From NCBI GenBank assembly GCA_030681595.1, contig JAUXSB010000003.1:31207-95206 (forward strand): a stretch of 64,000 nt of DNA, in the 5' to 3' direction. The position numbers were made by a program, and so were the translations under genes. Positions 30,779-56,872 of this stretch are shown piece by piece (within the stretch, counting starts at the first letter, position 1; every line of letters begins with the position of its first letter). The stretch is from Candidatus Omnitrophota bacterium (GTDB lineage Bacteria > Omnitrophota > Gorgyraeia > Ghiorseimicrobiales > Ghiorseimicrobiaceae). Under the pieces are notes generated by a model. That model did no database searches. It was not told the origin of the DNA and saw only the letters and a program-made list of their open reading frames with translations.

Positions 30779-30838
30779 AAATTTTTTCCAGCGGCGCTTC
30801 GCTCACCGCAATCTTTCTCTATTCCAAGTCTAAATTTA

Positions 30839-30926: not shown

Positions 30927-31057
30927 AAAATATTTCCGCCGAAGGCGAAACCTCGCCAAACTAAAAGTTTGGCGGGCGAGAACGGCCCGTTATGACCACT
31001 TCGGTACCTCTCCAAAGTAAAAACAATAAATACAAAAACTAAAAATTAAGGAATCTT

Positions 31058-38794: not shown

Positions 38795-39766
38795 TTAAGC
38801 GCCTTTTATCGGCCTGAATTCTTCAGAGCCATATGCCTTTAAATAATGGACATATGGCCCAAGACAAAGGCTATTGAATACGCACCCACTACAAGAAACC
38901 ACCTTCCTTCTAGAGGTATATTTAAATGAATCATCTTTATTCTTTACACTCACCAAATAACCTCTGGAAATTTTTAATATTACGCATCTGAACATCTCCT
39001 TGTCAATCTTATTAATTATGCAAAATGGCATAGAGAGAAAATATCTTGCAAAATATATAAATAAATCAGAATGATAACGATATCTTTTTGTATACAACTC
39101 TACGGCTTTTTTAAAATACCTTATGACCTTTGTATATCTGGGCATTAGAAAATGGTAAAAAATAAGGGAAGCGGCATGCGGCCTATAATGATCTATCATA
39201 AAACGCATTCCAGGAAACTGTTCAATTTTAAGCCTTACCAAAGATGGAATATCCGCATAATTTTGCGTTAAAAAAATACCGTTTAATGTTACGGGTAAAT
39301 CAAACCGAGATAAATTGTTCAATGCCTCCATCAAATCAACAAATGAACCTGGAGAATTAGTTATCGCATCGTTTATCTTTGCAGTAGATCCGTAAATAGG
39401 AACATGAAATCCATTAGCTCCTGCCGTTACGACTTTCTTTAGAAAAACAAAATTCTTTAATTTTCTTCCCGTGGTTTGAACGGTGATATTTGTAAAAGAT
39501 AATTTACGCGCAAAAACTAATAAATCAATAATGGATGAACGGTTCAGTATTTCGTTACCCGTAAAGCATATCTTGCGAAAACCAAGCGACTTCGCAAGGC
39601 GTATCCTACATTTAATTGTATTTATATCATCCGGCTCATCATGGGTAAGTTGTTGCGTATTTTTTCCATGTACTAATCGGCTGTTCTGACAAAACACGCA
39701 AGAGTTATCGCATTGCGAATCTAATACTAAAATTATTTCATCGTTGTTTTGGAGAATAGGCATCAC
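38795..39766 (-). CDS. radical SAM protein, island paralog family (twitch-like C-terminal 4-Cys)
   Basis: 323 aa with CDNSCVFC and a C-terminal FCIIN...CSGCVFNSLCLG...YGSEEFRPIK. Confidence 0.7.
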   Translation of the reverse strand: MMPILQNNDEIILVLDSQCDNSCVFCQNSRLVHGKNTQQLTHDEPDDINTIKCRIRLAKSLGFRKICFTGNEILNRSSIIDLLVFARKLSFTNITVQTTGRKLKNFVFLKKVVTAGANGFHVPIYGSTAKINDAITNSPGSFVDLMEALNNLSRFDLPVTLNGIFLTQNYADIPSLVRLKIEQFPGMRFMIDHYRPHAASLIFYHFLMPRYTKVIRYFKKAVELYTKRYRYHSDLFIYFARYFLSMPFCIINKIDKEMFRCVILKISRGYLVSVKNKDDSFKYTSRRKVVSCSGCVFNSLCLGPYVHYLKAYGSEEFRPIKGA

Positions 39767-40650
39767 TTAACAGGTTTAAACTCTTGCCACCCAAAAAACT
39801 CAGGATATTCACGCCAGGGTCCCTCGCAAATTTTGAAATATTTGCATTCTTCACACTTCGGCCCTTTAAGTTTTCCATGTTCTCTGCGCCACTGGTTAAA
39901 ATTGGTTATCGGTTTAATATCAAATACCTTGGTTTCAGGAATAATCGCTTCACTAGCACAATTGGCATATTCGCTTAAAAAACAATACGGTATGGCTTCA
40001 GTTTTTGGCATTTTTTTCTTCCTAATGCCAATTTCCAGGCCGCGTTTTAAATAAAGAATAATATCTTTTTTCTGCGGTATTAGCCAACTATGATTCGCTA
40101 ATGCGTTTCCTAAAATATGAGGAAAGGAAAAACGATATTCAACCACCCCTAAGCCAACTAACATCAAAGCAATCTTAGGTAAAAAGCGGTAATTCAATGC
40201 AGTAATAACTGTATTAGTAAATACTACGCGACCAGAAGAAAGGAGATGCTTAATACCACAAATCGTCTGAGCGAAACTTCCCCTCGCTCCCGTATGGCTA
40301 TCATGCAACTCAGCATTATGTCCATGTACCGATATAGTAAAAAGACTTGCACCTGCCTCTATCATTTTTTTACAAAAATCTTTATACCTAAACATTCTTC
40401 CGTTGCTTTGAATATGAACAATATATCCTAACTTTTTAGAATATCTTACCAAGTCTATGATATCAAAACGTATTGTAGGTTCTCCACCTGTAAAAATTAC
40501 CTCTTTATAACTATCTTTCGAATCAGCTAAAATAGTTTCTATCTGTGAGCGCGCCATATCGTTGTAGATTTTGCGCTTGTTACCTTGGACACAAAAACTA
40601 CAGTGGTTATTACATCTAAAACTAATTTTTATATCCAGCCTCTTATGCAT
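39763..40650 (-). CDS. radical SAM protein, island paralog family
   Basis: 295 aa with CNNHCSFC, FTGGEPT, SVHGHNAELHDSHTG, and C-terminal IPYCF...CEECKYFKICEG...FGWQEFKPV. It is a close paralog of 55967-56872. Confidence 0.75.
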   Translation of the reverse strand: MHKRLDIKISFRCNNHCSFCVQGNKRKIYNDMARSQIETILADSKDSYKEVIFTGGEPTIRFDIIDLVRYSKKLGYIVHIQSNGRMFRYKDFCKKMIEAGASLFTISVHGHNAELHDSHTGARGSFAQTICGIKHLLSSGRVVFTNTVITALNYRFLPKIALMLVGLGVVEYRFSFPHILGNALANHSWLIPQKKDIILYLKRGLEIGIRKKKMPKTEAIPYCFLSEYANCASEAIIPETKVFDIKPITNFNQWRREHGKLKGPKCEECKYFKICEGPWREYPEFFGWQEFKPVK

Positions 40651-40681
40651 ACATCTATCCTAACCTTAATTATCCGTTGTC

Positions 40682-41614
40682 TTACGGCTCGCTTTTAACA
40701 TGTTTTATTGTCTCTTCTTTGGAAACAAAAACAGCGTATAGTTCTTGCGAAGAAAAATATTTATCCATCGCATAAAGGCCGGGACATATTTCATTCAAAA
40801 AACAAACACTACAACACTCAACCTTGCCATATGACCATCCTCTTTGGACTTTAAGGCCCTTTTCATCTAAGAAATAAATCGCGCGCTTCTCTCTCTTTAT
40901 TATTTTTCTGGCTTCCGTAGAACAATGTGCAAAATCAGCCATGTAACATAAGGGTACGCGTTCCGCCCTAAAAGTTCTCTTTTGCTCGGCTAAAAAATGC
41001 ATTGCCCTATTGAGCTCTAATTCAAAATCTATCAGTCGGGGAATCGTATCGGGATTTTCTGATGCGCGGTTCATCGAAGGGTCAATATTATTCCAGATAA
41101 AATGGCGAATAAACGGATATCTATTCACAAGCCACGCCGTAATTCTGCTTAAATGATCGGCATTATATTTATTAATCACGGTAATAACATCAACCTGCAA
41201 ATTTAACTTTTTGGCATTGTTAAGCGTTTTTTTAATGTTACATAAAGAATCCTTGTTCTCAGTAAGAAAACCCTGAATATCAGCACTATCAGAGTAGATG
41301 GATAAATTGATATGGTTTAATCCTGCCTCTGCCAATGAGTTAATATATTTAAAGTCGGCTGTTTTTTGGCCATTCGTTATTATTCTGACTGGAAAATTTT
41401 TGTTTGTTGCATACGCGATCAATTCAATGAGATCTGGATATAGGGTCGGCTCTCCTCCGCTTAAAATAACCCCATCGCAACCTATCTTGACATAATAATC
41501 AATTAACTCCTTAGCTTTCTTAAGAGATATGGTTTTATCAAACGACGGATTAGAACAAAATCTGCATTTTTGATTACAAATACGCGTAACCTGTATATAA
41601 GCTAATTCGGCCAT
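40682..41614 (-). CDS. radical SAM protein, island paralog family
   Basis: 310 aa with CNQKCRFC, LSGGEPT, and C-terminal VPLCY...CCSVCFLNEICPG. Confidence 0.7.
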   Translation of the reverse strand: MAELAYIQVTRICNQKCRFCSNPSFDKTISLKKAKELIDYYVKIGCDGVILSGGEPTLYPDLIELIAYATNKNFPVRIITNGQKTADFKYINSLAEAGLNHINLSIYSDSADIQGFLTENKDSLCNIKKTLNNAKKLNLQVDVITVINKYNADHLSRITAWLVNRYPFIRHFIWNNIDPSMNRASENPDTIPRLIDFELELNRAMHFLAEQKRTFRAERVPLCYMADFAHCSTEARKIIKREKRAIYFLDEKGLKVQRGWSYGKVECCSVCFLNEICPGLYAMDKYFSSQELYAVFVSKEETIKHVKSEP

Positions 41615-41618
41615 GTTT

Positions 41619-42644
41619 TCAGTAATTGCATTTATGTTTATGCTTGTTTTTTATTTCTGAATCAAATATGCTAATCCGCTCTAAAGTATGCAATATTTCT
41701 TTCGGATTTTTATCTGAAAGCGTTAGATTAAAATTAGGATAAACTTTTAGATAATCTCTTCTTACCCCCGGGCATATTTCACACAAAGAACAGCCTCTGC
41801 ATTCTCTGTATTTATAAAAATCTTCTTTGGCGATATCATTTTGAGTCCTGAGATTATTTATCCCGCGCGAATCAAGATATAAGTTATTATGATATAAATT
41901 TTCTTTTAATTCAACACTGGACCATTCATAAGAAGAGAGGATACATAACGGAAAACCGCAAGCAGAAATTTTATCCGTAGGGTTATCCCCTCCTAACGCC
42001 TTTAACGCTTTTAAAAGATAAGGCTGAATCTTATTTAGCGGAGGAAGTATCTTTTTGTAAAAAGTACTGTCATTGCCGCCTAAATCCATAAATTTAAATT
42101 TTACCCTGAATGGCGTATGCCTTAATATTTTTTTAAGATGAGTCGCCATGCCCTCTAATTCTTTATAATTCAAGCTATTAATTACCGTGTTGAAATTAAT
42201 CGCTAGCCTTTCTCTTATCTTTTTATTATCCTTATTAAATGATTCGATATTTAGTAAAGCCTTTTCCTGTAAAGAATGGCAAAACTTATTTCTTGATATG
42301 GCATTTGCAACCTTTGGGATATGCGAGTGAAAAGAAAAATTTATCTGCACGACTCCGCCTTTAATAACCTTAACTAAAAAATCATAGTAACTAAGCATTG
42401 AACCGTTAGTTGTAACCTTAAGTTTTAAATTACATTTTTTGGCTTCTTCCAATATTTTTAAAAAATCTGGCCTAATGAATGATTCCCCGGTCATTAACAT
42501 AACTGTATCTTCCTTGTAACTCTTAACTTTTTGAAACAATTGCCTAATTTCTCCAAAAGAAAGATCTTTTTTATGCTTATGCTGCCTATCCAGACAAAAT
42601 AAACAGTTGAAATTACATTTTTGGGTAATGCCTGTAATAATCAT
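41619..42644 (-). CDS. radical SAM protein, island paralog family (divergent)
   Basis: 341 aa with CNFNCLFC and C-terminal FPLCIL...CRGCSLCEICPG. Confidence 0.65.
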   Translation of the reverse strand: MIITGITQKCNFNCLFCLDRQHKHKKDLSFGEIRQLFQKVKSYKEDTVMLMTGESFIRPDFLKILEEAKKCNLKLKVTTNGSMLSYYDFLVKVIKGGVVQINFSFHSHIPKVANAISRNKFCHSLQEKALLNIESFNKDNKKIRERLAINFNTVINSLNYKELEGMATHLKKILRHTPFRVKFKFMDLGGNDSTFYKKILPPLNKIQPYLLKALKALGGDNPTDKISACGFPLCILSSYEWSSVELKENLYHNNLYLDSRGINNLRTQNDIAKEDFYKYRECRGCSLCEICPGVRRDYLKVYPNFNLTLSDKNPKEILHTLERISIFDSEIKNKHKHKCNY

Positions 42645-44734
42645 TAATTTTCTATCGGCTTTAAATCAGAAAACGAATAAATTAATGCGTATTCTCGCCA
42701 TACGCCATTACAAAAATTATATAAATTACATTTAACACAATTTGGCCCCTTAATTTTGCCTAAATTTAAATTATTTTCCCGCGAATTAAATCTTAAAGTA
42801 TTTTCGGTATATTCCACACATTGGCTAAGGTACTTATGCCATCCTCCTATACATAACGGGACACCGCAATATGGATTAAATATCATTAAATCACATTTTT
42901 TAGCCAGCTCGACTGCCTTTTTGATATAGGGAGAGATTATTCCATATGACGGTATAAGATACTTATTTATTAATGCCCGCTCCCGCGGCTGGATAACCGA
43001 AAGCGAGATATTTTTAATTTGGGGAAATTTATTATGAACAAATTTTATGTATTCGGGTAACTCTTTGTAATTTTGGGTAGTTATAACCGGATTTAAGGTA
43101 ACATCAATATTTAATTCTAATGAATTCCTAATCCCTGCGATAGCCATATCGAAGGCACCCTCCAACCCTACCAGCTTATCATGAATTCCAGGTACTGAAG
43201 AATGCAGGCTAATAAATAGCTTATTCAGCCCGGCATATTTCAATTTTTTTAAATAATCGTTATCGGATAGCCTTATCGCGTTAGTTTGAACCTGAACTAT
43301 TTTTACTCCTTTTCTATGGGCATATTTTATCAACTCCGAAAGGTCTTTTCTCAGGGTAGGCTCACCGCCGGTAATATCCAACTCCAACCTTAATTCCTTA
43401 TCAAGTGCGGTCAAGCGGCCTATTTCAAGTTTAGCCTGTTTAGTCGAAAGCTCTTTTAGAGCATACGATTCCGGAGGAACATTACAAAATAAACATCCGG
43501 CATTACACGCTGAGCCTAATCGTAAAAGCTTATATGGGGAGTTTTTCTTGACATCACCAATACTAATTTTCTTTAACCCGGCTTTAATCGGTGATAAAAC
43601 CTCAAATCCGTGCTTACGGATATAATTACACTGCATTCCAGCACAGCCTGCCATATGTTTGCACTCCTTGCATCTTTTACTTTTCAAAAAATATCTGTGT
43701 TGAATATAAAAATCAAGAAACTTTAAAATATCTTTATTTTTTTGGTCATTTTGCACATATACTGCCGGCCTGCCCGAATATCCCGGTTCATTTATTTCCC
43801 CTAAACAAAAAGGGGAGGCATGCGAAAGTATTTTATTTTTTTTCTTTAATTCTATTAAATCCTTACAAAAATTTTCTAAAAAACAAAACCGGCACCTCAA
43901 GCCTTTACAATCCATCACTTTGCCTTTAAAAAGAAAATTATTAAACATATCCTTGCGGCCGCCTACTTCATCGTATAATTTAGCCGGGTGCTGGATTAAA
44001 TATTCAAATCCTTCAAGATACTGCGGGGGGAAACGATTTGTCCATATATGTAGCCGCGGATCTTTGGATAGCATAAAAGCTTTGCGCAAAAATTTAATTG
44101 ATTTTTGAATATCATAAAAGAGAATATCCCTCTTAGCCCATGCTTGCCCAAATGGGATAACTTGCAAAAGATCAAACTCATATACGCCCAAATTAATAAA
44201 GAATTCTAAAATACTTGCTAAATACATTACATTAATTTTGTTTATCACAATATCAACACTAACAATCAAATCTTTTTCTTTTAAAGCATTAACTAAGGCT
44301 ACTAACGACTGCTGAAATGATCCCGGTACTTTAGTTTGTTGATCATGAAGCCTGCTATTATGCCCATGCAGCGAAAAGGTTATTTCTGATACACCGCTTT
44401 CTATTGCCTGCTTTAAGAAGCTCTGGTAGGCAAACATCCGGCCATTGGTAATAACTTGAATATGGCTGTATCCTAATGTCCTCGCCATATTAACAATATT
44501 AAAAAAATCCGGATGGATTGTTGGTTCTCCCCCGCTTAAAACAACTCGTCTTATCCCTAAACCTCTGCCTTTTTGTAAATCGGCTTTGATCTTCTCTAAA
44601 GGGATTACGCTCCCATCATGGGCTTCTTTATCTAAACAAAAGAGGCAGCGGTTATTACAACCCCGGGTTAGCCGTACCCAGTGTCTTTTTACCTGTGGTA
44701 TAATTTCTCGTTGCATAGAATAGCCTTTTATCAT
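42644..44734 (-). CDS. tandem-fused double radical SAM protein (two complete paralog-family modules)
   Basis: 696 aa. Module 1 has CNNRCLFC...SLHGHNSRLHDQQT...CKECKHMAGCAG. Module 2 has CNAGCLFC...SLHSSVPGIHDKL...VPLCIGG...CVKCNLYNFCNG. Confidence 0.75.
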   Translation of the reverse strand: MIKGYSMQREIIPQVKRHWVRLTRGCNNRCLFCLDKEAHDGSVIPLEKIKADLQKGRGLGIRRVVLSGGEPTIHPDFFNIVNMARTLGYSHIQVITNGRMFAYQSFLKQAIESGVSEITFSLHGHNSRLHDQQTKVPGSFQQSLVALVNALKEKDLIVSVDIVINKINVMYLASILEFFINLGVYEFDLLQVIPFGQAWAKRDILFYDIQKSIKFLRKAFMLSKDPRLHIWTNRFPPQYLEGFEYLIQHPAKLYDEVGGRKDMFNNFLFKGKVMDCKGLRCRFCFLENFCKDLIELKKKNKILSHASPFCLGEINEPGYSGRPAVYVQNDQKNKDILKFLDFYIQHRYFLKSKRCKECKHMAGCAGMQCNYIRKHGFEVLSPIKAGLKKISIGDVKKNSPYKLLRLGSACNAGCLFCNVPPESYALKELSTKQAKLEIGRLTALDKELRLELDITGGEPTLRKDLSELIKYAHRKGVKIVQVQTNAIRLSDNDYLKKLKYAGLNKLFISLHSSVPGIHDKLVGLEGAFDMAIAGIRNSLELNIDVTLNPVITTQNYKELPEYIKFVHNKFPQIKNISLSVIQPRERALINKYLIPSYGIISPYIKKAVELAKKCDLMIFNPYCGVPLCIGGWHKYLSQCVEYTENTLRFNSRENNLNLGKIKGPNCVKCNLYNFCNGVWREYALIYSFSDLKPIEN

Positions 44735-45693
44735 TTAATTGCCCTGAATTCGCCCCAGCCAACCTTTTCGGCATAAAGATTATCTATACCGCTGCATTTA
44801 TAATAATATTTGCATGGTTTACAGCTTTTATTTTTTATATTCCTTGATTCACGAGGTAATATTTCTACTCTTTTATTTTTAACCTGAAGTGGGATTTCGG
44901 ATTCCCCGACGTAATTTTCATAACCTACCATCAAACAAAGCGGCACAGGAGATATCTGTATAACGCCGGATAATCTAAACAGCTTATCTACTTTTAACCT
45001 ATCAATTACATTCCTAACTTCTTTAGCTACATCCAAATAAGTAACAAATAACTGACTGAAGAATCTTTCTGCGTTGCCGGAATACATTGGCATATTTAAC
45101 ACAATGCTATCTACTTTATTAAACGGTAAGATTTTTCTTAAGAAATTTTCAATATCTCTGTAGTTAATTTTTGTCATGGTAAAATTAACATTAAGCCGAA
45201 ATCTATATTTTTCCTTTAAAGAGACCATGTTGCATAACCCTTGCCATGTTTGTTCAAATGCACCGCTGCTACGAGTTAAGGCATCATGGATTTTTTTATT
45301 ACTCCCGTGAAGAGAAATATTAATCTCATTTAGCCCGCTATCTAATAATTCAATGCAAAAGTTTTTATATCTTAATAAACGCCCGTTTGTCTGTAGGCAA
45401 ATATCTTTATATCCCCACTTCTTAGATAATCTTATGAAATAAAGTAAGCCCTTATTCAGCGTTGACTCTCCCCCCGTAAATGATATGGAATCGACTTCTT
45501 TTGTTTTTCTTCCATCTCTTTTAAACATATCCAGATTTAAAAATGGTTCTCCGTTGACACTGCAATAATATTTTGACAACATATTCTGGCCATTAATACA
45601 ATCGCGATCACAGCAAAAAATACAATTATTGTTACAACACCCGCTGGTTTTAATATGAATTCTACTATCAGGGCTTATAATTACGTTATCCAT
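44731..45693 (-). CDS. radical SAM protein, island paralog family
   Basis: 320 aa with CNNNCIFC, FTGGEST, SLHGSNKKIHDALT, and C-terminal CKPCKYYYKCSG...VGWGEFRAIK. Confidence 0.7.
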   Translation of the reverse strand: MDNVIISPDSRIHIKTSGCCNNNCIFCCDRDCINGQNMLSKYYCSVNGEPFLNLDMFKRDGRKTKEVDSISFTGGESTLNKGLLYFIRLSKKWGYKDICLQTNGRLLRYKNFCIELLDSGLNEINISLHGSNKKIHDALTRSSGAFEQTWQGLCNMVSLKEKYRFRLNVNFTMTKINYRDIENFLRKILPFNKVDSIVLNMPMYSGNAERFFSQLFVTYLDVAKEVRNVIDRLKVDKLFRLSGVIQISPVPLCLMVGYENYVGESEIPLQVKNKRVEILPRESRNIKNKSCKPCKYYYKCSGIDNLYAEKVGWGEFRAIK

Positions 45694-45696
45694 TCT

Positions 45697-47055: not shown

Positions 47056-47063
47056 ATGAATAA

Positions 47064-47990: not shown

Positions 47991-47994
47991 ATCA

Positions 47995-48912
47995 TTATTT
48001 AATCGGCTTTATTTCGCGATCACCATAATATTTTAGGTATATATCCCAAACACCTTTACACTTATCAGCAATCTTACAAAATAAACATTTTCTAATTTTT
48101 ATTCGATTAATTATTTTTTTTGACTCGATATTTTCGTACTGTTCAATTTTATTTTTAGATATCAACCGAGGCGTACTTTCAAACGAATATTCATTTTCCT
48201 CGATAGTACCGGATATCTGCTTAAGATAGTCCCCAAAATAGCATAAGCAGGGAACATTTAAAGCCGCATAGCTAACCTCATCATCTAACCGCCCAATATC
48301 TAAAAATTTGCGAATATAATACGCGGCTGTAGAAATACGCGGCGTATATTTATAAAAATCACGCGGGGAACTAACATAAATGAGGCATGCCGTTTTTATC
48401 CCAACACGATAGATTAACTTACCTATATCATATAAATATTTATAATTCTGCTTAACAATTACCGTGTTTGTACCTATATTATCAAACCCGAATTTCCTAA
48501 GGTTGGCAATCCCTTCCTTAAGATGTTTAAAGCTCCCCTCTACCTGCGATAGATAATCGTGTAATTTTGCATTATGCCCGTTGATCGTAAAGATTATACG
48601 AGAAATTCCTGCCTCAATAGCCCTACGAGTAAAATCTTCATAAGAGAAAAACCTGCCATTTGTAGTCAAAGTGATATTTTGAAAACCTATATTTTTGGCA
48701 AATTTTAGCAAATAAAAAAAGTCCGGCCTAATCGTAACCTCCCCCCCGGCAAAAAAAGCATCAACAGCCCCAGCTTTTTTCGCTTCTTTAATCTCCCGCA
48801 TTATTTCCTGTGTCGTTTTAACAGGAATACCCCTATATGCCCTATCGCCGCAAAAACGGCAATAATTATTACAGGAATAACCGGTAAGAAATTTTGCTGT
48901 TTTATCTTGCAT
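47995..48912 (-). CDS. radical SAM protein, island paralog family
   Basis: 305 aa with CNNYCRFC, FAGGEVT, TINGHNAKLHDYLS, and C-terminal CLFCKIADKCKG...YGDREIKPIK. Confidence 0.75.
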   Translation of the reverse strand: MQDKTAKFLTGYSCNNYCRFCGDRAYRGIPVKTTQEIMREIKEAKKAGAVDAFFAGGEVTIRPDFFYLLKFAKNIGFQNITLTTNGRFFSYEDFTRRAIEAGISRIIFTINGHNAKLHDYLSQVEGSFKHLKEGIANLRKFGFDNIGTNTVIVKQNYKYLYDIGKLIYRVGIKTACLIYVSSPRDFYKYTPRISTAAYYIRKFLDIGRLDDEVSYAALNVPCLCYFGDYLKQISGTIEENEYSFESTPRLISKNKIEQYENIESKKIINRIKIRKCLFCKIADKCKGVWDIYLKYYGDREIKPIK

Positions 48913-48922
48913 TGATAATAGT

Positions 48923-50455
48923 TTATTGCTTGGAGTTAGAGTTGAAGCACCGATTGTACTGCCCGCATTCTCGGCAAAATCCCCGCCATAAGTTTAAATT
49001 GAGATTATCCACCATAAGGCGACTTTGTGTTAACGCCGCAAGATATTTCGATTTCTTATAAATACAATAGATCTCGGAATGATACAACTTCAAAATTTCG
49101 CTGATATCGGCTTCGGAAAAAAATTCTGTGCAATATGGGATGACGGATAAATTAGATTTGGAGAAATTATAAAAATCCTTTAAGGAATTTACTTTACTTA
49201 ATACTCCGTATTTTTCTGGATAAAGGAATAGTGGAGAAGCAGGGTCAATCGCAGTTGAGTCCTGGCGTATTTCAACATTCGCTAATCTATTCCGTATGGA
49301 ATTAATGAATTTTAATGTTTCATATATATTTTTTTTTGTTTCAAAAGGCAAACCCGCGGAAAACGATAAGCATAATTTAAGATTTTTTTTATTGGCATAC
49401 AATAAAATCTCTAATATTTCATTATTTGAATAGCCCGCCTCTTTATTCATTTTCCTGATTTTTCGCGATCCGCTTTCTAAAAAAATTGAAATAATTGACC
49501 CCCTTTGAAATGTTTTCGCGAATTCGTCAATAAATACCTTTGTTGATAATCTGCAATCACCAAAATTTATAGTTAGGTCGATTTTATTTTTCCGTATTTC
49601 TTTAAACAAATCCATAAAATATGCATCATTCTGGCTCACCGCATACATATGCAGTTTATTGATATTATATTTTTTCAGTCTTTTTAAATCCTTAATCACA
49701 TATTTCACATCGGCAAAAACAATTTTACTTCTCTTGTTAATATTTTTTTGGGCCGAACACCCTCCCCCACAAAAAGAACAGCTCCTGACGCATCCCCGGC
49801 TAGCAGTATAATAAAATATTGGTTCGCTATCCTTATTGTTTAAATCCATAGAGAAGAATCTTATATATTTATCGTGGTTACGAATAAGTTTAAAGTTCGC
49901 ATATGATAATCTGTTAATTATGGCTTTGCCGGCAACATAAGTATGGGGGTTTTCAACTATGCCTTCACCGTCTCTCCATACCAAGTTCGGGATAAGGCGC
50001 AACCCCTCCGGAGATTTACTTCGGATACTATTTAAAAGCGCTAATAAAGGGATTTCCGCATCACCCTTGATGACAAAATCTATTTCTTTATATGTACGCA
50101 TAATTTCAGTGGCGAAAAGTGAAGCCGTCATCCCGCCTACTATCACCGTAATCTTTTTAATCCCGCGTTTTAAATATTTAATCGCCTCCAATACTTCGTA
50201 TGTATGCTGATACCAATGAAGATCAAATAATACTGCCCAATAACCTCTACTTATAACAAAATTTTTCAAGTCAAAACTGGGATTTAAGCTTTTTTCCAGG
50301 CCCAGATGAATAATAGACGGTTTAAAGCTATTTTTTGATAAATAGTCTGCGATGCCTATCATGCCGCGAGGCATCAATTTTATGCTAGGATTTTTCCCCT
50401 CTCTGGATACATGGACAAAACAAACTTTATTATTAAGCTTAAGGTTAGCAGCCAT
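48923..50455 (-). CDS. B12-binding-domain radical SAM protein (class-B-like)
   Basis: 510 aa with an N-terminal Rossmann-like cobalamin-binding region (IVGGMTASLFATE...FVIKGDAEIPL) and CVRSCSFC. Confidence 0.65.
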   Translation of the reverse strand: MAANLKLNNKVCFVHVSREGKNPSIKLMPRGMIGIADYLSKNSFKPSIIHLGLEKSLNPSFDLKNFVISRGYWAVLFDLHWYQHTYEVLEAIKYLKRGIKKITVIVGGMTASLFATEIMRTYKEIDFVIKGDAEIPLLALLNSIRSKSPEGLRLIPNLVWRDGEGIVENPHTYVAGKAIINRLSYANFKLIRNHDKYIRFFSMDLNNKDSEPIFYYTASRGCVRSCSFCGGGCSAQKNINKRSKIVFADVKYVIKDLKRLKKYNINKLHMYAVSQNDAYFMDLFKEIRKNKIDLTINFGDCRLSTKVFIDEFAKTFQRGSIISIFLESGSRKIRKMNKEAGYSNNEILEILLYANKKNLKLCLSFSAGLPFETKKNIYETLKFINSIRNRLANVEIRQDSTAIDPASPLFLYPEKYGVLSKVNSLKDFYNFSKSNLSVIPYCTEFFSEADISEILKLYHSEIYCIYKKSKYLAALTQSRLMVDNLNLNLWRGFCRECGQYNRCFNSNSKQ

Positions 50456-50800
50456 TTAAAAGCGTGAAAATGTGTTTTCTTTCGAATAAATACGCAAATT
50501 ACTGTGAATCATTTTTTTAAATTTACGGTTATCCCCCTAGGTGTTTAAAAGTATATCCCGTATAGACGAAGAGGTTTTTCCGATATCATCCAAACTTTTT
50601 ATATCATTCACTGTGCCAAAATAAAATTCTCTTTTTAGCTTTTTAAATTTAGTCTCAAGCAATGGCCCCCCACAAAATATATCCCCCCGTCGCAATCAAC
50701 AGCCGGTTCAGAAGATATGATCCGCTCACCTTCCCGAATTTTGAAATTCGCTATAAAATTAATAATCTATTGATACTGGGTAAAACTTGCGTATCCATAA

Positions 50801-51742
50801 TCATTTTATCGGCTTTAATTCTGAATCGCCGTATAGCTTATAATAAGGCCGAAAAATTCCTTTGCAAAAATTATTTTTTTTACATACCCTGCATAATCTG
50901 GTTTTAGCGGCCATTGGGGTAGAGCGATTAATTTTTCGCAGGCGCAAAGAACCTTTCTTGTACTCCATTCTATCGTATTGCTCGTTAGCCTCTGCACTAC
51001 AATCATCTATATTGCCTGAAAAATCAGGCAGTACACAAGAAGGAACCCCAAAAATCCTGATATTCATCTTCAGGATTTGAGCTAAATTAAAAATGAGATG
51101 CGCTTTTTTTTCCCATTTACTTAACCTTACCGTATATTCCATGATAAATTTTTTATTTGCCGTTACGGGGACCATATTTGAAAATAACACCCTCTTTACT
51201 CCCAAATTATGCAACCCTATAATTATATCTTTTAAATATGGAAAATTATATTTTGTGACTACGGAGTTAGTTAATAAGTTAATTCGCGGATTTATGTCCA
51301 GGATATTCCGTAAGGCGCCGATTACTTTTTTGAAACTTCCGGGATTATTGGTATGACTATCATGAAGCCCAGCATTATGGCCATGCATAGAAATAACTAT
51401 CTCATCAATAAATGGGACTACCTTAGCCGCGAAAGAATACGAACTAAGCATAACGCCATTAGTGTTAAGATGCACCTCAAAACCATGGCTTTTTGCGGCA
51501 TAAAGAACATCGAAAAAATACGGATACAGCGTCGGTTCTCCCCCGGTAATAAATAGTGAACTATATTTCCCGGAATTTTTTTTAAAGAATGCGGTAATCC
51601 TATTCAAAGCAAAAGGTTGTAGGCTAAGATTCTCCTGTGCTCTGTTATCGGCTTCCAAACAAAAATCGCAATTGTTGGTACAGGCATAAGAAAGCATTAT
51701 TTCTAAGCGCTTTATTTGCTTACTCTTCTTCAATGTATGCAT
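50801..51742 (-). CDS. radical SAM protein, island paralog family
   Basis: 313 aa with CTNNCDFC, ITGGEPT, SMHGHNAGLHDSHT, and C-terminal VPSCVLP...CRVCKKNNFCKG...YGDSELKPIK. Confidence 0.75.
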   Translation of the reverse strand: MHTLKKSKQIKRLEIMLSYACTNNCDFCLEADNRAQENLSLQPFALNRITAFFKKNSGKYSSLFITGGEPTLYPYFFDVLYAAKSHGFEVHLNTNGVMLSSYSFAAKVVPFIDEIVISMHGHNAGLHDSHTNNPGSFKKVIGALRNILDINPRINLLTNSVVTKYNFPYLKDIIIGLHNLGVKRVLFSNMVPVTANKKFIMEYTVRLSKWEKKAHLIFNLAQILKMNIRIFGVPSCVLPDFSGNIDDCSAEANEQYDRMEYKKGSLRLRKINRSTPMAAKTRLCRVCKKNNFCKGIFRPYYKLYGDSELKPIK

Positions 51743-53114
51743 CTAAGTCTTGATGTTCTATATCATTAATTCTACTTTTAGCAACAGAATACTTACTTTT
51801 AAAAATATTCATAACTTTTTTGCTGTAAAAAATTTTGGATAAGATAAAATACTGTTTTTTATCCTTAAAATTTGGCCGAAAAATTAAACTGCTGTCTAAA
51901 CAATTTAAATTTCGCTTTAAAAAACTAATTTCTTTTTTAAAGGCCGGATTAAAATCAACGCCAAACAGCTTAAAAAACTTTCTTTTGTTTATCCCTTGAT
52001 AAAGAAACTTAATAATATAATATCTGCTTTCTTCATCCCTGTTCATTTTATAGCCATTATATAACTGGGCTGATTTAAAATAATTATTAATACCGGTTGA
52101 TAAACGGTAACATCTGTTTGCAAACGCATAAGATATCGCGCCGTATCCTAAGCCCAAAATAGATACCTTAAAATCTGGGGACTCAAATAAATTAATCTGC
52201 GGGTTTATTGCTTCCTTTGATAAAGCCGACCCTGCGCGGCCGATGCTTTTATAGCCAGAAAATTTCTCTAAAATATTTCTCTTGATATCAACCATCATCT
52301 TCCTTCTTCTTATGTCGCGTTGCGTAAATTTAAAATTTTTCCTTGAAAATAAGGTATTTTTATCTGGCAAAAAAGGATTAACATGAATAATATCGGGGTG
52401 CAATTTAACAACCATCAATAATGATTTAACGAATGACTGTATTGTCTGCCCCGGTAAGCCAGCCATTAAATCAATATTCAAATACGGAATGCCTATTTCT
52501 CTTGCCTGAGTAAACGCTCGGTAAACTGAATCTCGGGTTTGTTTTCTCGCCATCTTTACCAATACTTTTTTATCCAGTGTTTCTACGCCGATAGTCAGGC
52601 GCTTTAATCCTAGATCCTTAAGTAATCTTAACTTACCGCTATCAAGAGAATTCGGATGCGCATCAATGGCGAATAAAAAATAATCCTCAAAGCAGAACTT
52701 TCCTTTTATGTATTGAATCAAATCTGCAATCTGCTGGTTTCTCAATACAGTCGGCGTGCCTCCTCCTATATATAAAGAACTAAATTTAATGCCCCTGAAT
52801 AGGCTATGAAAAGAATCGATTTCTTTCTTTAAAGCTCCCAGGTAAGTATCAAGCTGAGAGAAACTCGATAGCGGGAAAGAAACACAATTACAATAAACGC
52901 ATTTTGTCTGGCAAAAAGGAATATGTATATAAAGGCATATTTTATTAAGACGGGGGTCTCGCTTTAAATTACGGGCAACGTTTTTCCATGATTTAATAAT
53001 CTCATCCTTGCTAACATTAGACCAAATCAAAGGCGGAGGATATAATACGGGATAACCATCTTCCAAAGAATGCAATGTGATATTTGTAAAAAGCGCATTA
53101 TCCATAATATCCAT
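51720..53114 (-). CDS. HemN/HemW-like radical SAM protein (class-C-like), second copy
   Basis: 464 aa with YIHIPFCQTKCVYCNC signature. Confidence 0.7.
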   Translation of the reverse strand: MDIMDNALFTNITLHSLEDGYPVLYPPPLIWSNVSKDEIIKSWKNVARNLKRDPRLNKICLYIHIPFCQTKCVYCNCVSFPLSSFSQLDTYLGALKKEIDSFHSLFRGIKFSSLYIGGGTPTVLRNQQIADLIQYIKGKFCFEDYFLFAIDAHPNSLDSGKLRLLKDLGLKRLTIGVETLDKKVLVKMARKQTRDSVYRAFTQAREIGIPYLNIDLMAGLPGQTIQSFVKSLLMVVKLHPDIIHVNPFLPDKNTLFSRKNFKFTQRDIRRRKMMVDIKRNILEKFSGYKSIGRAGSALSKEAINPQINLFESPDFKVSILGLGYGAISYAFANRCYRLSTGINNYFKSAQLYNGYKMNRDEESRYYIIKFLYQGINKRKFFKLFGVDFNPAFKKEISFLKRNLNCLDSSLIFRPNFKDKKQYFILSKIFYSKKVMNIFKSKYSVAKSRINDIEHQDLDAYIEEE

Positions 53115-54082
53115 TAATTAATAGACGTGAAATCGTCAACGCCAAAATTATCGATATAATCTTTATATGGCCCGATACAGCTGTTCCTTCTCTTGCAATC
53201 CAGGCATTTATCAATCGGGGGATTTTGAATAATTACCTCCTTAGCATATAAATTGGGGTAAGAATCTAAATTTAAAACTTTTTTATCAAACGCAATACAA
53301 AATGGAAGTTCGGAAGAAGCGTCGTTTAGTTTACCGAATCTCTCCAAAACACAAACCGGAAAACCACGGAGAAATTCTTTTGACTTTTTTAGCTTGAAGA
53401 ATAAATTACGATACGGAACCATTAAATCCTTATAGTTAATGTCCTTGGGAAATGGATGAAATTTAACATGGATGAACCCATCAAAAAAAAATCTTGGGAA
53501 GGCATAATTACAAAACCCGAGAATATCATCTAAAAAACAATAATTTTGCTTTAATACAATGGAATGAAGATTGATATTCAACTCCCTAATCTTATTTAAT
53601 GCGCGTAAAACGCTGACAAGCGCTTCAAATGAACCTTTTTTCCGGACAACTCTGTCATGCACTCTAGCATCGGCGCCATAAATCGGTATATAGAAATTAA
53701 ATTTTAAAGGCAGACGCAAGATATTATCTAATGTATCTTTTTGTCCTAATTTTAACCCGGAAGTATGCAGATTGACTTCTTCATAGCCAAGCTTATGGCT
53801 AAAATTTAAAATTTGCGCTATAAATGGATGTGCCAGAGGCTCATCACCGCTTAAAAATATCTTTTTTAACTTTAGCCGCCTTCCAATGGCTAAAAGCCCT
53901 TTTATCCTAAACAATTCGCTATTAAGGCTATTATTTTTAATTTTACCCGGCTTACCGGGATAATTGGAAGTGCAAAAAATACAGTCATAGTCGCATTTAC
54001 TTGAAATTGGCAGAAGCGCATATTCAATTTTATTTAAAAGGGGCAAATTCTTTGTCACCATAGATTTTAAGGTATTCTTCAA
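53114..54082 (-). CDS. radical SAM protein, island paralog family
   Basis: 322 aa with CDYDCIFC, LSGDEPL, and C-terminal FPVCVL...CLDCKRRNSCIG...FGVDDFTSI. Confidence 0.7.
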   Translation of the reverse strand: MKNTLKSMVTKNLPLLNKIEYALLPISSKCDYDCIFCTSNYPGKPGKIKNNSLNSELFRIKGLLAIGRRLKLKKIFLSGDEPLAHPFIAQILNFSHKLGYEEVNLHTSGLKLGQKDTLDNILRLPLKFNFYIPIYGADARVHDRVVRKKGSFEALVSVLRALNKIRELNINLHSIVLKQNYCFLDDILGFCNYAFPRFFFDGFIHVKFHPFPKDINYKDLMVPYRNLFFKLKKSKEFLRGFPVCVLERFGKLNDASSELPFCIAFDKKVLNLDSYPNLYAKEVIIQNPPIDKCLDCKRRNSCIGPYKDYIDNFGVDDFTSIN

Positions 54083-54977
54083 AGATTCCTCCGCATACAG
54101 AAAATAGCCGGCATTTTATACATTTAGCGATTTTTATTCTCGACATATCAATTATATTGCTGGAAAAATTTGATATTGATTTTCGCGTGCTTATTTCCCT
54201 ATTCCAAAGGCACATTTCTGAGTCATTCTTAAACCTTTTACCTATCCTCATCTCTGGCTCATAAACTTCAAAAGCATACATAAAATTATCCTTGCCTAAA
54301 ATACATAACGGCACGCCCCCGAATCTTAACGGTATCCCGGATTCTTTTGAATATTCTGCCAATTTAAGGATATATTGCTTAAGCTTACTAAAATTTACTA
54401 CTAAATTTTTATAATCGTTTTTCGCATTTCCGCTAGGGACCAAATTTAAGTACCTTACGCAGCGGGGGCTATATTTAGACACGACTTTAAATATATCCAG
54501 CAATGACGCGGCATTATGTTTTGTTATGGTTACATTTACAAGAAATGCTTTTTTATAATATTTCCTAACATTTTTAAAAGCTTTTATCAATATCTTAAAA
54601 CTATTCTTATTGCCGGTATGTAAATTATGCACATATTCATCCGGGCCTTGTATTGAAAGGCACAAATCGTCGATATATTCAAAAGCCCTATTGCAAAAAA
54701 CTTTATCGGTAAACATAACACCATTCGATATAACATAAATTTGATAATTTAGATTTTTTGCGGCATGTAAAATTTCAAGAAACTTAGAATGCAAAGTTGG
54801 TTCTCCTCCCATAAAATGGACTAAACGCGCTCCCCGCTTTTTCTCTTTTTTCAGAACTTTTATTATAAATCCAAACGGGAGTTCACTATTATCAAACCTT
54901 GAATTCTCGCTGCAAAAAATACAGTTATTTGAACATTTATTCGCGATAAATAATTCTATCCTGTTTATTTTAAACAT
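54030..54977 (-). CDS. radical SAM protein, island paralog family
   Basis: 315 aa with CSNNCIFC, FMGGEPT, SIQGPDEYVHNLHT, and C-terminal VPLCILG...CIKCRLFSVCGG...YGDKEFAPFK. Confidence 0.75.
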   Translation of the reverse strand: MFKINRIELFIANKCSNNCIFCSENSRFDNSELPFGFIIKVLKKEKKRGARLVHFMGGEPTLHSKFLEILHAAKNLNYQIYVISNGVMFTDKVFCNRAFEYIDDLCLSIQGPDEYVHNLHTGNKNSFKILIKAFKNVRKYYKKAFLVNVTITKHNAASLLDIFKVVSKYSPRCVRYLNLVPSGNAKNDYKNLVVNFSKLKQYILKLAEYSKESGIPLRFGGVPLCILGKDNFMYAFEVYEPEMRIGKRFKNDSEMCLWNREISTRKSISNFSSNIIDMSRIKIAKCIKCRLFSVCGGIFEEYLKIYGDKEFAPFK

Positions 54978-55977
54978 ATGATTTATGTTTTATGGAAAAA
55001 TGCAGGTCTGCCTTATAATTCATGCCCTGATTTCGTTTCCTGTCCGTACTGATAATGCATGGATACATAACAAAATCATTTTTATCGCAAATTTTAATAA
55101 GATCTTCAATCGCGTTAAGATGAGATCTTAAATTCCAGCATTTCAAAAAATTAAAAATCTCTTTGTACGAGCTACTGAAATCGGAAATATTGTTTTCGTA
55201 AATTTTTAATATTTTTAACGGAATAAGGTGGCCGCCCTTATCAAAACGGTATGCGATTTGGTAAAAAGCGGACTTTTCTTTTGTGAATTTTTCAAAGAAA
55301 TTTTCAAAATAAGCATACTGCCGCCAAGTAAGCAGGTCTCTATACCTGCCTAAACTCAAATGCTTTGAATAATTGTATATTTTAATGCTGTATGTTGAAT
55401 CGCAAAAAAAATCTATCCCAATAACACTTATTAAATAATCTTTTAAGGCAGTAATAATATCTTCGCCATTAAAATTTATAATTTTACTAATAGTTGAAAT
55501 TTTGTTAAGCCTGCTCTTTTGAGAATCAGAAATGAGTAATTCTTCTAAGTATATTTTTAATCTTGGGTATGAGCCTATAGGCCAATCCATGCCGAATGTG
55601 GTCTGATGTTTATCCCTAACTTTTATCGCATTGAAAATCTCTTTAAGCTTGAGTGTGTTGTAGCGTGTTTTATAATTATAATTCAATACGTTAAAAGCAT
55701 TAATTATTTTTTTATCAAATGATTGTTTTTCATTATAATTGTTGTAGGTAAACCTAAAATTTGAAATATGGTCATACCCTTTGATTAAAGAAAAGGAAAA
55801 GTCAAATTTAAAATGCGCCGGGACATCTCTATGGTTGGAATGTTTTATTATCGAATCTTTTACTGCGCTTACAACTTTTTTATTAATGCTACCGCCTATC
55901 TCGCCTAACAGATAGCCTATAATATTCGAGATGGATAAAAAAAATAAACGATTTCTATTTATTGCGCTATCGCCCAT
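54970..55977 (-). CDS. hypothetical protein (non-rSAM) embedded between rSAM genes
   Basis: 335 aa, Asn/Tyr/Phe-rich, no recognisable motif; overlaps both neighbours by 8-11 nt. Confidence 0.3.
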   Translation of the reverse strand: MGDSAINRNRLFFLSISNIIGYLLGEIGGSINKKVVSAVKDSIIKHSNHRDVPAHFKFDFSFSLIKGYDHISNFRFTYNNYNEKQSFDKKIINAFNVLNYNYKTRYNTLKLKEIFNAIKVRDKHQTTFGMDWPIGSYPRLKIYLEELLISDSQKSRLNKISTISKIINFNGEDIITALKDYLISVIGIDFFCDSTYSIKIYNYSKHLSLGRYRDLLTWRQYAYFENFFEKFTKEKSAFYQIAYRFDKGGHLIPLKILKIYENNISDFSSSYKEIFNFLKCWNLRSHLNAIEDLIKICDKNDFVMYPCIISTDRKRNQGMNYKADLHFSIKHKSYV

Positions 55978-56872
55978 ATTTTTTTAGGACAGGGACAAAT
56001 TCTGACCAGCCAAATTTTTCAGGATACTCTTTCCACGGCCCTTCACAAATTTTATAATGATAGCAATGCCTGCAAGACAAATTCTTCGCTTTTCCTTCTT
56101 TTTTACGTACTTTCGTAAAATCATCGATAACCTTTCCAAGGTCATAAATTATTGTTTCGGGTATAATCTTTTCAGCGATATAATCTTCATAGCCTTGCAT
56201 GAAACAATAAGGTATTGCTTCTGTCATGACTTTTTTATTAGCCTTGATACCTATACCCAAACCTTCCTTAACATAGGGCATAACCATTGAAATTCTCGGC
56301 ACAACAGAATAAAAATTATCGCCTGCCGAACCGGCAGCATGGACAAATGCAAATTGAAATTGGTCAACGCCAAGTTTTACCAAAAGCTCAGCGATTTGCG
56401 CTAGATGCCTATAATTAGGTTTAGTAATAACCGTGTTAGTGATTACAGTTTGATTTCGTTGTTTTAAATTTATTATTCCCGCGACAGTCTCGTTAAAGCT
56501 GCCGGCAGAAGAAGTCAAATAATCATGGACTTGGGCGATATGCCCATGGAGTGCCGGAGAAAATTCATTCGCCCCTGCGGCAATAATTTCATCGCAAAAC
56601 TTTTTATAATAGAATATCCTGCCGTTAGTTTGTATTTGGATAATTTTAAATTTCAATCTTTTGGCATGGCCAACCAAATCTAAAATATCGCTTCGTATTG
56701 TAGGCTCGCCTCCGGTAAAAACAACCCCATCGCAGTCTCGCCTGGCATCCTCTAAAATCTTCTTTATAGCAAGAGTATCTTTATCGCTTTGCAGGTGTCT
56801 CTTCTTGCCCTGGACGCAAAACCGGCAATGGTTATTGCAAGCAAATCCGATTTTAATATCAACTCTTTTCAT
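55967..56872 (-). CDS. radical SAM protein, island paralog family (close paralog of 39763-40650)
   Basis: 301 aa with CNNHCRFCVQGKKR, FTGGEPT, ALHGHIAQVHDYLT, and C-terminal IPYCFMQ...CRHCYHYKICEGPWKEYPEKFGWSEFVPV. Confidence 0.75.
   Translation of the reverse strand: MKRVDIKIGFACNNHCRFCVQGKKRHLQSDKDTLAIKKILEDARRDCDGVVFTGGEPTIRSDILDLVGHAKRLKFKIIQIQTNGRIFYYKKFCDEIIAAGANEFSPALHGHIAQVHDYLTSSAGSFNETVAGIINLKQRNQTVITNTVITKPNYRHLAQIAELLVKLGVDQFQFAFVHAAGSAGDNFYSVVPRISMVMPYVKEGLGIGIKANKKVMTEAIPYCFMQGYEDYIAEKIIPETIIYDLGKVIDDFTKVRKKEGKAKNLSCRHCYHYKICEGPWKEYPEKFGWSEFVPVLKKYGR

Follow-up and report, generated by a model that had tools for sequence, protein, structure and literature searches.

How a single bacterial operon comes to encode a dozen radical S-adenosylmethionine (rSAM) enzymes of one family, and on what they might act, is the question raised by a 64 kb stretch of DNA from a Candidatus Omnitrophota bacterium (contig JAUXSB010000003.1, positions 31,207 to 95,206), which we refer to as the window. 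Within it, 12 minus-strand genes of one ~300-aa rSAM family, amounting to 13 modules, lie in the interval 38795-56872; these counts are based on coordinates and the open reading frame (ORF) listing. We hold with moderate confidence that the 13 modules are the HxsC-derived rSAM tailoring arm of an expanded HxsA4-type His-Xaa-Ser (HXS) maturation operon. The GenBank records (MDP18526xx, exact matches for several of the operon proteins) name the genes at the head of this operon HxsA4, HxsB, HxsD and HxsD-like, while every paralog is called only 'radical SAM protein', a label which the comparisons below show to hide one coherent family.

The initial annotation of this DNA had described eleven-plus paralogs of one rSAM family, and the 12 genes and 13 modules bear this out. 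They are as follows.

55967-56872, minus strand: HxsC-like paralog g56872, the most conserved type (HxsC4 166 bits, HxsC 104 bits)
54030-54977, minus strand: HxsC-like paralog (Pfam, NCBIfam, alignment)
53114-54082, minus strand: HxsC-like paralog with the GDEP variant of the GGE motif (Pfam, NCBIfam, alignment)
50801-51742, minus strand: HxsC-like paralog (Pfam, NCBIfam, alignment)
47995-48912, minus strand: HxsC-like paralog, g48912 type, elsewhere often fused to the g44734C type
47064-47990, minus strand: HxsC-like paralog, g47990 type, with orthologues up to 50% identical
44731-45693, minus strand: HxsC-like paralog (Pfam, NCBIfam, alignment)
42644-44734, minus strand: two-module fusion of 696 aa with two Radical_SAM stretches (N-module aa 1-384, C-module aa 385-696)
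41619-42644, minus strand: HxsC-like paralog, the most divergent, with a TGES motif and a long C-terminal extension
40682-41614, minus strand: HxsC-like paralog, g41614 type, a clear orthogroup
39763-40650, minus strand: HxsC-like paralog, 50% identical to g56872
38795-39766, minus strand: HxsC-like paralog, GNEI variant

A MAFFT alignment of the 13 modules finds the CxxxCxxC motif with its invariant Phe, and the tail CxxCx5CxG....Y....G..E..P..IK, in 13/13, and TNG, an (S/T)xHG..a..HD..T...GSF box and N.v..k.NY are broadly conserved. The landmarks by which the family was first described are real motifs. GGEPT is degenerate in three modules (GDEP, TGES and GNEI), although the Glu is kept in all 13, and the P-x-C Cys, present in 12/13, is missing from one module, the N-terminal half of the fusion, where an additional stretch rich in Cys (C-x4-C-x2-C-x5-C...C) is found instead. 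The cysteines of the SAM cluster and of the tail are shared across the modules, the point for which an alignment had been proposed; with homologues added, to give 40 sequences, C12, C16, C19, C267, C270 and C276 are invariant and C223 (P-x-C) is at least 90% conserved. Two pairs had been called close duplicates, which overstates their likeness, as 39763-40650 and 55967-56872 are 50% identical and 47064-47990 and 54030-54977 are 35% identical; other pairs range from 18 to 33%. The genes inside the interval that fall outside the family encode two HemN-like rSAMs, one B12-binding rSAM and one 335-aa non-rSAM protein.

Pfam Radical_SAM (PF04055) is above threshold in all 12 genes, with 45.9-145.7 bits in 10 of them against a cutoff of 29.5; the values for 39763-40650 and 38795-39766 were taken from precomputed Pfam matches. 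The NCBIfam models HxsC4 (NF038332) and HxsC (TIGR03977) also match all 12, with E-values from 1e-11 to 1e-64, so that membership is far beyond chance; one or both of these models rank first among NCBIfam models for 11/12 genes, and for most paralogs the HxsC4 alignment spans the full 335-position profile. For comparison we took the HxsC of an annotated hxsD-hxsB-hxsC-hxsA operon on an Aeromonas plasmid, which as a control scores 395.9 bits with the HxsC model. It is 20-29% identical to the paralogs (BLASTP E 2e-20) and has in common with them the PLYGAMARDHDYH..GAF box (HG..HD..GxF), IPHC (the P-x-C Cys) and CDDCASKAVCCG (the CxxCx5CC tail). The family, initially left uncharacterised and unplaced, is thus HxsC-like by its best NCBIfam matches, by the motifs of canonical HxsC and by its setting in an Hxs operon, with HxsD, HxsB and HxsA4 encoded 1-4 kb upstream on the same strand, not directly adjacent as in the canonical D-B-C-A order. 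Identity with MoaA, NirJ or QueE had been named as the outcome that would overturn the proposal of a separate family, and orthology with each is rejected: MoaA reaches at most 67.8 bits with single-module genes and 129.6 with the fusion over two stretches (cutoff 284), NirJ at most 67.7 and 119.8 (cutoff 515), and QueE_Clost 28.5 (cutoff 260). Viperin, BlsE and Tes were likewise rejected, with scores far below curated cutoffs. A PADLOC v2 scan of the head and paralog proteins returned only generic viperin-like rSAM similarity, in a release that lacks Hxs models, canonical HxsC included.

The initial annotation had predicted a twitch-like enzyme and not a full SPASM domain, and the sequence and model comparisons are in keeping with this. 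Pfam SPASM (PF13186) gave no match at E<0.01 in the 10 paralogs scanned, though HxsB matches, and only four tail Cys are conserved per module; the N-module of the fusion, with nine Cys, may be an exception. An AlphaFold2 (AF2) model of 55967-56872 (pLDDT 94.7, pTM 0.91) has the expected partial TIM barrel followed by a beta-hairpin, residues 240-249, which lies between C223 and the helix region of the CxxCx5C motif (C267, C270 and C276). Its top Foldseek matches in the PDB are SkfB (twitch; E 1e-12, TM 0.63), BlsE, GDGT-MAS, SuiB and viperin, none more than 19% identical, the predicted model being nearest to SkfB and BlsE; a profile search of PDB sequences agrees, with BlsE as the top sequence match. 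The model supports assignment of the paralog to the SPASM/twitch clade, with one predicted auxiliary Fe-S site. The same succession of partial TIM barrel, Cys, beta-hairpin, helix and CxxCx5C is seen in the twitch enzymes SkfB and BtrN and in SuiB, anSME and PqqE, which are SPASM maturases of ribosomally synthesized and post-translationally modified peptides (RiPPs); in contrast to these, the paralogs lack an N-terminal RiPP recognition element or other substrate-binding domain, and one auxiliary site is predicted. We take the Cys spacing of the paralogs (one Cys plus CxxCx5C) to be nearer to the second half of the SPASM motif than to the BtrN pattern.

At the head of the operon, upstream of the array and missed by the initial annotation, lie the following genes.

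61011-61601, minus strand: opens the conserved head; secreted protein of 196 aa, Cys-rich at its C-terminus
60542-60967, minus strand: HxsD (TIGR03976 55.4 bits, cutoff 50; GenBank HxsD)
60352-60561, minus strand: HxsD-like small protein of 69 aa (NF038315 HxsD_rel 64.8 bits, cutoff 41)
58892-60361, minus strand: HxsB, an rSAM/SPASM maturase of 489 aa (TIGR03978 490.4 bits, cutoff 370; Pfam SPASM match)
58155-58919, minus strand: conserved secreted Cys-rich head protein of ~250 aa (no Pfam or NCBIfam match)
57829-58125, minus strand: HxsA4 precursor of 98 aa (NF038313 60.7 bits, cutoff 55, over residues 9-98; GenBank HxsA4)

HxsB is 38% identical to the annotated hxsB product of the Aeromonas plasmid. 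The wider distribution of these genes was followed in 80 species-representative loci (numbered with the prefix L) anchored on the g56872 type and taken with 10 kb flanks, module counts being made within 21 kb. A counterpart of the HxsD-like protein, of 66-75 aa, lies between HxsD and HxsB in L002, L004 and L089. The 61011-61601 product matches no Pfam or NCBIfam model, and has a homologue in the same position beside MtaB in a related Omnitrophota genome (phmmer E 1e-25); the 58155-58919 product has homologues in the same position in L004, L025 and L089. In Omnitrophota (L004, L025 and L089) the head thus regularly includes both of these secreted Cys-rich proteins, which could be extracytoplasmic partners of the mature peptide.

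The window HxsA4 (MKEKNESRLPRIKKQIKDFLLREEGKISKKDIAKIGISLAVLSAMFKPDSAQAASHASHNNHANALVTAGRGGHNSGTPHGSHGSHGSHSSHGSHGQW) consists of a leader, a hydrophobic segment, AQA and a His-Xaa-Ser run ending in HGSHGSHGSHSSHGSHGQW, with seven HxS units, 10 His and a C-terminal Trp. Orthologous peptides are found in 22 loci and share the leader (I/L)PKIKK.(I/L)K.FL.SEEGKI.KK, a hydrophobic stretch often ending in AxA, a semi-conserved AH.N.(F/L).N.G..G.H and then (HxS)n, with a C-terminal Trp or Tyr in 16 of the 22. A conserved EE(G/A)K precedes the hydrophobic segment in these precursors and bears a loose resemblance to a class III (pilin-type) signal; it departs from one in that ~10 polar residues separate the Gly/Ala from the hydrophobic stretch. 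The number of HxS units per precursor varies from 3 to 53 across loci, the extremes being L081 17945-18664, L077 14205-14672 and L071 487-885, with 53, 30 and 25 units. Two different HxsA4-type peptides are encoded in L007.

The remaining genes of the operon, beside and among the paralogs, are these, the last three lying downstream of the array.

56859-57959, minus strand: rSAM with a PapB/CcpM-like core and no SPASM Cys (profile matches)
54970-55977, minus strand: 335-aa protein (p335) with a predicted ABBA (PT-barrel) aromatic prenyltransferase fold (AF2 and Foldseek)
51720-53114, minus strand: HemN-like rSAM, related to HemN/HemW/ChuW and below all cutoffs
48923-50455, minus strand: rSAM with a B12-binding domain, TIGR04190-like (175 bits, cutoff 500)
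45697-47055, minus strand: second HemN-like rSAM
37700-38770, minus strand: 356-aa Cys-containing protein with sub-threshold DUF483 similarity (22.3 bits, cutoff 25)
37215-37700, minus strand: small TPR protein
36033-36956, minus strand: membrane protein like Peptidase A24 (prepilin peptidase) (PF01478 24.3 bits, cutoff 26.5; GenBank 'prepilin peptidase')

The whole amounts to ~25 kb with 17 rSAM genes and 18 rSAM modules. According to the ORF listing, junctions range from a 53-nt overlap to a 31-nt gap throughout, with one exception of 345 bp, and because the genes are packed so tightly or overlap, head and array probably form a single operon. The exception, 50456-50800, is the sole sizeable non-coding gap in the 25 kb and holds no convincing ORF or Rfam match; it may be an internal promoter or another regulatory element. 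Rfam and tRNA scans found nothing in or beside the operon, the only match being a tRNA-Ser at 30838-30927, and a promoter and terminator scan of the region gave counts not above those of shuffled controls; the best promoter-like site, TTGACA-17-TATATT (11/12) at 61678-61650, lies just upstream of 61601. GC content is 0.30-0.37 across ~36-61.6 kb and 0.41-0.44 in the flanks. An island inserted at this place, as the low GC might suggest, was rejected, since a relative with an 86% identical MtaB has the same head at the same site with another tailoring set.

Of the accessory products, p335 has no Pfam or NCBIfam match. A word-based search returned only three non-identical relatives, hence the shallow alignment of four sequences behind its AF2 model, which is of medium confidence (pLDDT 79) and has five aa-bb repeats in its DSSP pattern. 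Its best 50 Foldseek matches in the PDB are all ABBA prenyltransferases (E down to 9e-9, TM up to 0.71; ~10% identity to the solved enzymes) and include Trp DMATS enzymes, the cyanobactin enzymes PirF, PagF and PatF, and the free-His prenyltransferase FunA. An ABBA aromatic prenyltransferase-like fold, predicted at the level of fold only, would fit a His-rich peptide that ends in Trp or Tyr. Homologues of p335 are present in L007, L009, L010, L073 and L074 (CPR (Candidate Phyla Radiation), Omnitrophota and Elusimicrobia), the last two being NifH-linked. The N-terminus listed for 56859-57959, MLRIITMLMLLLQPAEEGIIRALRMAPMAPMAPIVPMVLM (MAPMAPMAP...), is the 3' end of hxsA4 read in another frame, so that the true start is probably Met40, at ~57842; gene callers differ on the length (366 aa or 363 aa), and the PapB-like type occurs in 37/80 loci, often in several copies. 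The 37700-38770 product has homologues in several loci. In the A24-like protein both catalytic-Asp motifs are readable (YEDL... and GAGDAKL), and a homologue is present in 28/80 loci, 18 of which have Hxs head genes.

The initial annotation spoke of serial duplication inside one operon; if recent duplication is meant, the age of the paralogs does not agree with this. Several window paralogs have orthologues that are 50-60% identical in CPR bacteria, Elusimicrobiota, Myxococcota and DPANN archaea, compared with ~25% between the window paralogs themselves. The g41614 type, with a median identity of 51% in 35 loci, forms an orthogroup that spans Elusimicrobiota, CPR, Myxococcota, Verrucomicrobia and archaea, and its best match outscores the second at least 1.5-fold in 27/37 modules; the top orthologues of g44734N, g44734C, g47990 and g48912 are 60%, 51%, 50% and 46% identical. 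For five window paralogs, the sampled flanks of the loci contain nothing that reaches 40% identity. Single-linkage clustering of 397 modules gives no clean orthogroups, as g56872, g44734N, g40650 and g48912 chain together at 35-40% identity, and the orthologue calls therefore rest on best-hit margins. Since orthologues in other phyla are closer than paralogs within the operon, the sequence comparisons indicate that the paralogs are an old, differentiated set of enzymes and not a recent local burst of duplication.

The tandem fusion of two modules in the 696-aa gene is confirmed, with the split near residue 384, and the suspicion that it might be a frameshift artefact can be set aside. The identical 696-aa protein is encoded in a Logan assembly, possibly from the same sample, and the fusion of N-type and C-type modules recurs in Azambacteria and Woesearchaeota loci (L009 and L082); because the same protein and the same arrangement are found beyond this contig, the fusion is genuine. 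There are 17 other two-module ORFs across the loci, and the pairs joined include g44734N-g44734C, g44734C-g48912, g56872-g48912, g42644-g56872 and g47990-g41614. By Rosetta-stone logic, so varied a set of fusions suggests that the paralogs work in physical association.

The initial annotation had also suggested, as an example, that each residue of a repetitive substrate has its own enzyme. HxsA4 provides such a substrate, and in the window the 13 modules are of the same order of magnitude as its 10 His and seven HxS units; repeat number does not track modules. Against the range of 3-53 HxS units in orthologous peptides stand at most 11 modules per 21 kb in the loci and 13 in the window. HxS count and module count are uncorrelated (Spearman rho 0.10, p 0.64, n=23), and limiting the comparison to the 17 loci that extend 9 kb or more downstream does not change this (rho 0.23, p 0.38), although this test is weak alone because loci are truncated at 10 kb. 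A clean comparison is with the Logan assembly (SRR13727519; L001 7654-7959), in which the HxsA4 tract has eight HxS units and the window seven, a difference of one CATGGCTCC (His-Gly-Ser) unit, the 9-bp indel being the sole difference in a 140-nt aligned stretch around the repeat. Either the number of copies varies in the population, or a perfect 9-bp repeat collapsed during assembly. HxsB (489 aa) and the 696-aa fusion are shared between the metagenome-assembled genome and the Logan assembly, so that the repeat differs without a change of enzyme. As the HGS repeats are near-identical, there is moreover no basis for site-specific recognition. The range of repeat numbers and this clean 9-bp difference are stronger arguments than the correlation test and leave one enzyme per repeat unsupported, and we consider a dedicated paralog for each residue or repeat of HxsA4 very improbable.

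The g56872 type has more than 3000 relatives, with orthologues 52-71% identical across bacteria and archaea (52-67% in one-genome-per-species data). By record title, the 80 loci comprise ~24 from Patescibacteria/CPR, 2 from Omnitrophota, 11 from Elusimicrobiota, 11 of Myxococcota type and ~24 archaeal (15 of them named DPANN), with single records from Planctomycetia, Verrucomicrobia, Spirochaetes and Desulfobacter. At least five HxsC-like modules within 21 kb are found in 45/80, the maximum being 11. Hxs head genes lie within 10 kb in 30/80, with HxsA4, HxsB and HxsD together in 14, and the head order of HxsD, HxsD-like protein, HxsB, ~250-aa protein and then peptide is found again in Parcubacteria and other Omnitrophota. 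The head is conserved and the tail variable. This is clearest in L089 11325-21260 (Omnitrophota, ENA ERZ21828306 contig-100_13), where the Hxs head occupies the same site beside MtaB (86% identical) and the tailoring set consists of a GT28-type glycosyltransferase, an rSAM-SPASM protein, a DUF2334 protein, an amine oxidase and other rSAMs. A type II secretion/type IV pilus gene set lies upstream in L089.

A second context for the same enzymes is that of nitrogenase paralogs. In the account of Méheust et al. (bioRxiv 10.1101/765248), group VI NifH/D/K paralogs of groundwater Elusimicrobia, two Gracilibacteria and 14 Myxococcales have 0-13 rSAM genes as neighbours, and B12 or HemN_C domains are present in some of these. 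The authors left the rSAM genes unclassified, did not mention HxsA4, HxsB or HxsD, and proposed from NifH phylogeny that tetrapyrrole reduction leads to a new cofactor (bioRxiv 10.1101/765248). In six of our loci (L039, L041, L073, L074, L078 and L079) NifH-type genes (FGKGGIGKST...GCDPK) adjoin g56872-type and g41614-type genes, and these loci carry the same rSAM subfamilies together with HemN-like genes and the rSAM type that we label r366; p335 is present in L073 and L074. They appear to be group VI clusters of the kind described by Méheust et al. The NifH-type genes lie at L039 9139-9954, L041 9097-9954, L073 2570-4786, L074 2571-4790 and L079 11795-13534 and 15583-17889, several being fused into proteins of 580-770 aa. 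One of the genomes of Méheust et al., the Elusimicrobia genome GWA2_69_24 (L051), has two HxsD/HxsB sets and a 17-repeat HxsA4 inside its suite. Under strict best-label calling, NifH and Hxs genes occur together within 10 kb in 0/80 loci; four loci with both under looser calling proved spurious, owing to weak HxsB cross-matches.

This context bears on the principal alternative to an HXS tailoring arm, namely that the rSAM suite builds or remodels a small-molecule cofactor, for example of tetrapyrrole type, the Hxs head being a separate adjacent module or only a carrier or scaffold. We think this unlikely. The six loci with NifH-type genes, r366 and HemN-like genes beside the same subfamilies (p335 in two) are what it would predict, as are the published rSAM-rich group VI neighbourhoods, which include the L051 genome, the two HemN-like rSAMs and one B12 rSAM of the window operon, and the position of the small-molecule enzyme BlsE as top PDB sequence match. 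HemN-like and B12 rSAMs are, however, also common as peptide methyltransferases; the tetrapyrrole idea itself was drawn from NifH phylogeny; there is no NifH-like ORF in the 64 kb window and no locus with both NifH and Hxs, against 30 with Hxs; and the closest named homologues of the paralogs are the peptide maturases HxsC and HxsC4, while L051 holds its Hxs sets and HxsA4 within the suite. It is more doubtful still that most modules are non-catalytic or redundant, whether they serve as structural parts of a hetero-oligomer or are duplicates in decay, and that only a few do chemistry. The degenerate GGE motifs (GDEP, TGES and GNEI), the five paralogs that lack a relative at 40% or more in the sampled loci and the frequent fusions, which suggest physical association, could be so explained, but every one of the 13 modules keeps the CxxxCxxC triad, the three-Cys tail and the GGE Glu, and all are intact ORFs in a compact operon of a small genome.

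Several observations weigh against a place for the array in HXS maturation. No paralog reaches the HxsC4 cutoff of 500 bits (range 56-217) or the HxsC cutoff of 267.9 bits (single-module genes 43.6-104.2; the fusion 186.7 over two stretches), and the ~110-aa N-terminal domain of HxsC is absent from all of them, since they begin 3-30 residues before CxxxCxxC. The small-molecule enzymes BlsE, GDGT-MAS, viperin and MoaA are among the nearest relatives in sequence or fold. While 30 of the 80 loci have an Hxs head and six have Nif paralogs, 44, many of them truncated, have neither, and the six NifH loci have no Hxs genes within 10 kb. A minimal pair in Myxococcota, a g56872-type gene followed directly by a 543-aa g44734N-type gene with the Cys-rich insert (L014 9932-12530, chromosome OY782497; also in L008, L015, L018, L019 and L029), has neither Hxs nor Nif genes within 10 kb, which the cofactor alternative would accommodate. 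Finally, the head and this array are separable, because L089 keeps the head at the same site with another tailoring set.

On the reading of the array as an HXS tailoring arm, each module would carry a single twitch-like auxiliary Fe-S site besides its SAM cluster. The rSAMs, which lack a leader-binding domain of their own, would be offered the HxsA4 leader in trans by HxsD and the HxsD-like protein. The rSAM series would act as a multi-enzyme assembly, in which each subfamily performs a different chemical step on every HxS unit, or on the pre-repeat AH.N.(F/L).N.G..G.H, and not one step per repeat. The HemN-like and B12 rSAMs might add carbon (methyl or methylene), the ABBA-fold protein might prenylate an aromatic residue (His, or the C-terminal Trp/Tyr), and the A24-type peptidase, a signal peptidase or both would remove the leader at membrane insertion or export. 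By analogy, the biological role may parallel that of canonical HXS, an envelope-located anti-phage effector. A broader proposal, which we offer tentatively as a possibility, is a 'mega-RiPP' pathway shared horizontally across domains and characteristic of groundwater Elusimicrobiota and of lineages that are ultra-small or episymbiotic (CPR, DPANN and Omnitrophota). In it a dozen or more distinct HxsC-derived rSAMs, fused or associated as an assembly line, would join with class B- and C-like methylases and an ABBA prenyltransferase to turn a (His-Gly-Ser)n peptide of variable length into a heavily cross-linked, alkylated polymer of an undescribed chemical type. If that proposal were true, the group VI nitrogenase-like proteins would act on a peptide-derived substrate and not on a tetrapyrrole.

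At this locus the HxsC scaffold has branched into a dozen or more conserved subfamilies, which are encoded in one operon and work on a His-Xaa-Ser peptide or beside it. The ~25 kb is a large share of a small genome, and the system is common to bacteria and DPANN archaea. The array could help to explain the rSAM suites beside group VI nitrogenase paralogs, and with the chemistry of the canonical +8 Da HXS modification still unsolved, one precursor, defined enzymes and natural fusions make a testable entry point that could lead to new radical peptide chemistry.

The HXS system was defined by Haft & Basu (as cited in PMC9062424), and in 2026 the canonical four-gene form was shown to defend against phage by keeping phage DNA from entering (PMC13128918). 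There the N-terminal processing of HxsA and its +8 Da modification, located in an SHRSS repeat, both require HxsB, HxsC and HxsD; HxsC binds HxsD, and matured HxsA acts in the periplasm. Pseudomonadota account for 99.7% of the canonical systems, the gene number is exactly four in 99.8%, and HxsA4-type or multi-rSAM variants are not mentioned (PMC13128918). The window operon resembles this system in that its HxsB and HxsD pass cutoffs, it encodes a His-Xaa-Ser repeat protein, and HxsC is homologous to the paralogs over the whole rSAM core and Cys tail. It differs in having 13 HxsC-like modules, all lacking the N-terminal domain, in place of one HxsC; in its substrate, a 98-aa HxsA4 whose leader is distinct, whose repeats lie at the C-terminus and which has no peptidoglycan-binding domain; in the additional HxsD-like protein, PapB-like rSAM, two HemN-like rSAMs, B12 rSAM, ABBA-like protein and A24 peptidase; and in its hosts, which are Omnitrophota, CPR, Elusimicrobiota and DPANN and not Pseudomonadota.

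Further afield, pyrroloquinoline quinone (PQQ) and mycofactocin biosynthesis likewise pair an rSAM of the SPASM/twitch clade with a small partner (PqqD, MftB) and a short precursor, to which HxsD and the HxsD-like protein may be compared. The window operon differs in its rSAM count, greater by an order of magnitude, in the repetitive nature of its substrate, and in that nothing points to a redox cofactor as product. With the group VI Nif neighbourhoods the operon shares g56872, g41614, g44734N/C, g47990, g48912, r366 and HemN-like genes, and differs in having no Nif paralog. A full-text literature search found no paper on HxsA4/HxsC4 systems or on the paralog array. At the level of annotation the system is known: NCBIfam models exist for HxsA4, HxsC4 and HxsD_rel, with the window peptide and the 69-aa protein passing their cutoffs and the paralogs below that of HxsC4, and rSAM suites have been noticed once before in the Nif context. 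Not found in the literature searched are a link between the Hxs and Nif contexts, an origin of the array from HxsC, and its occurrence in CPR, DPANN and Omnitrophota alike.

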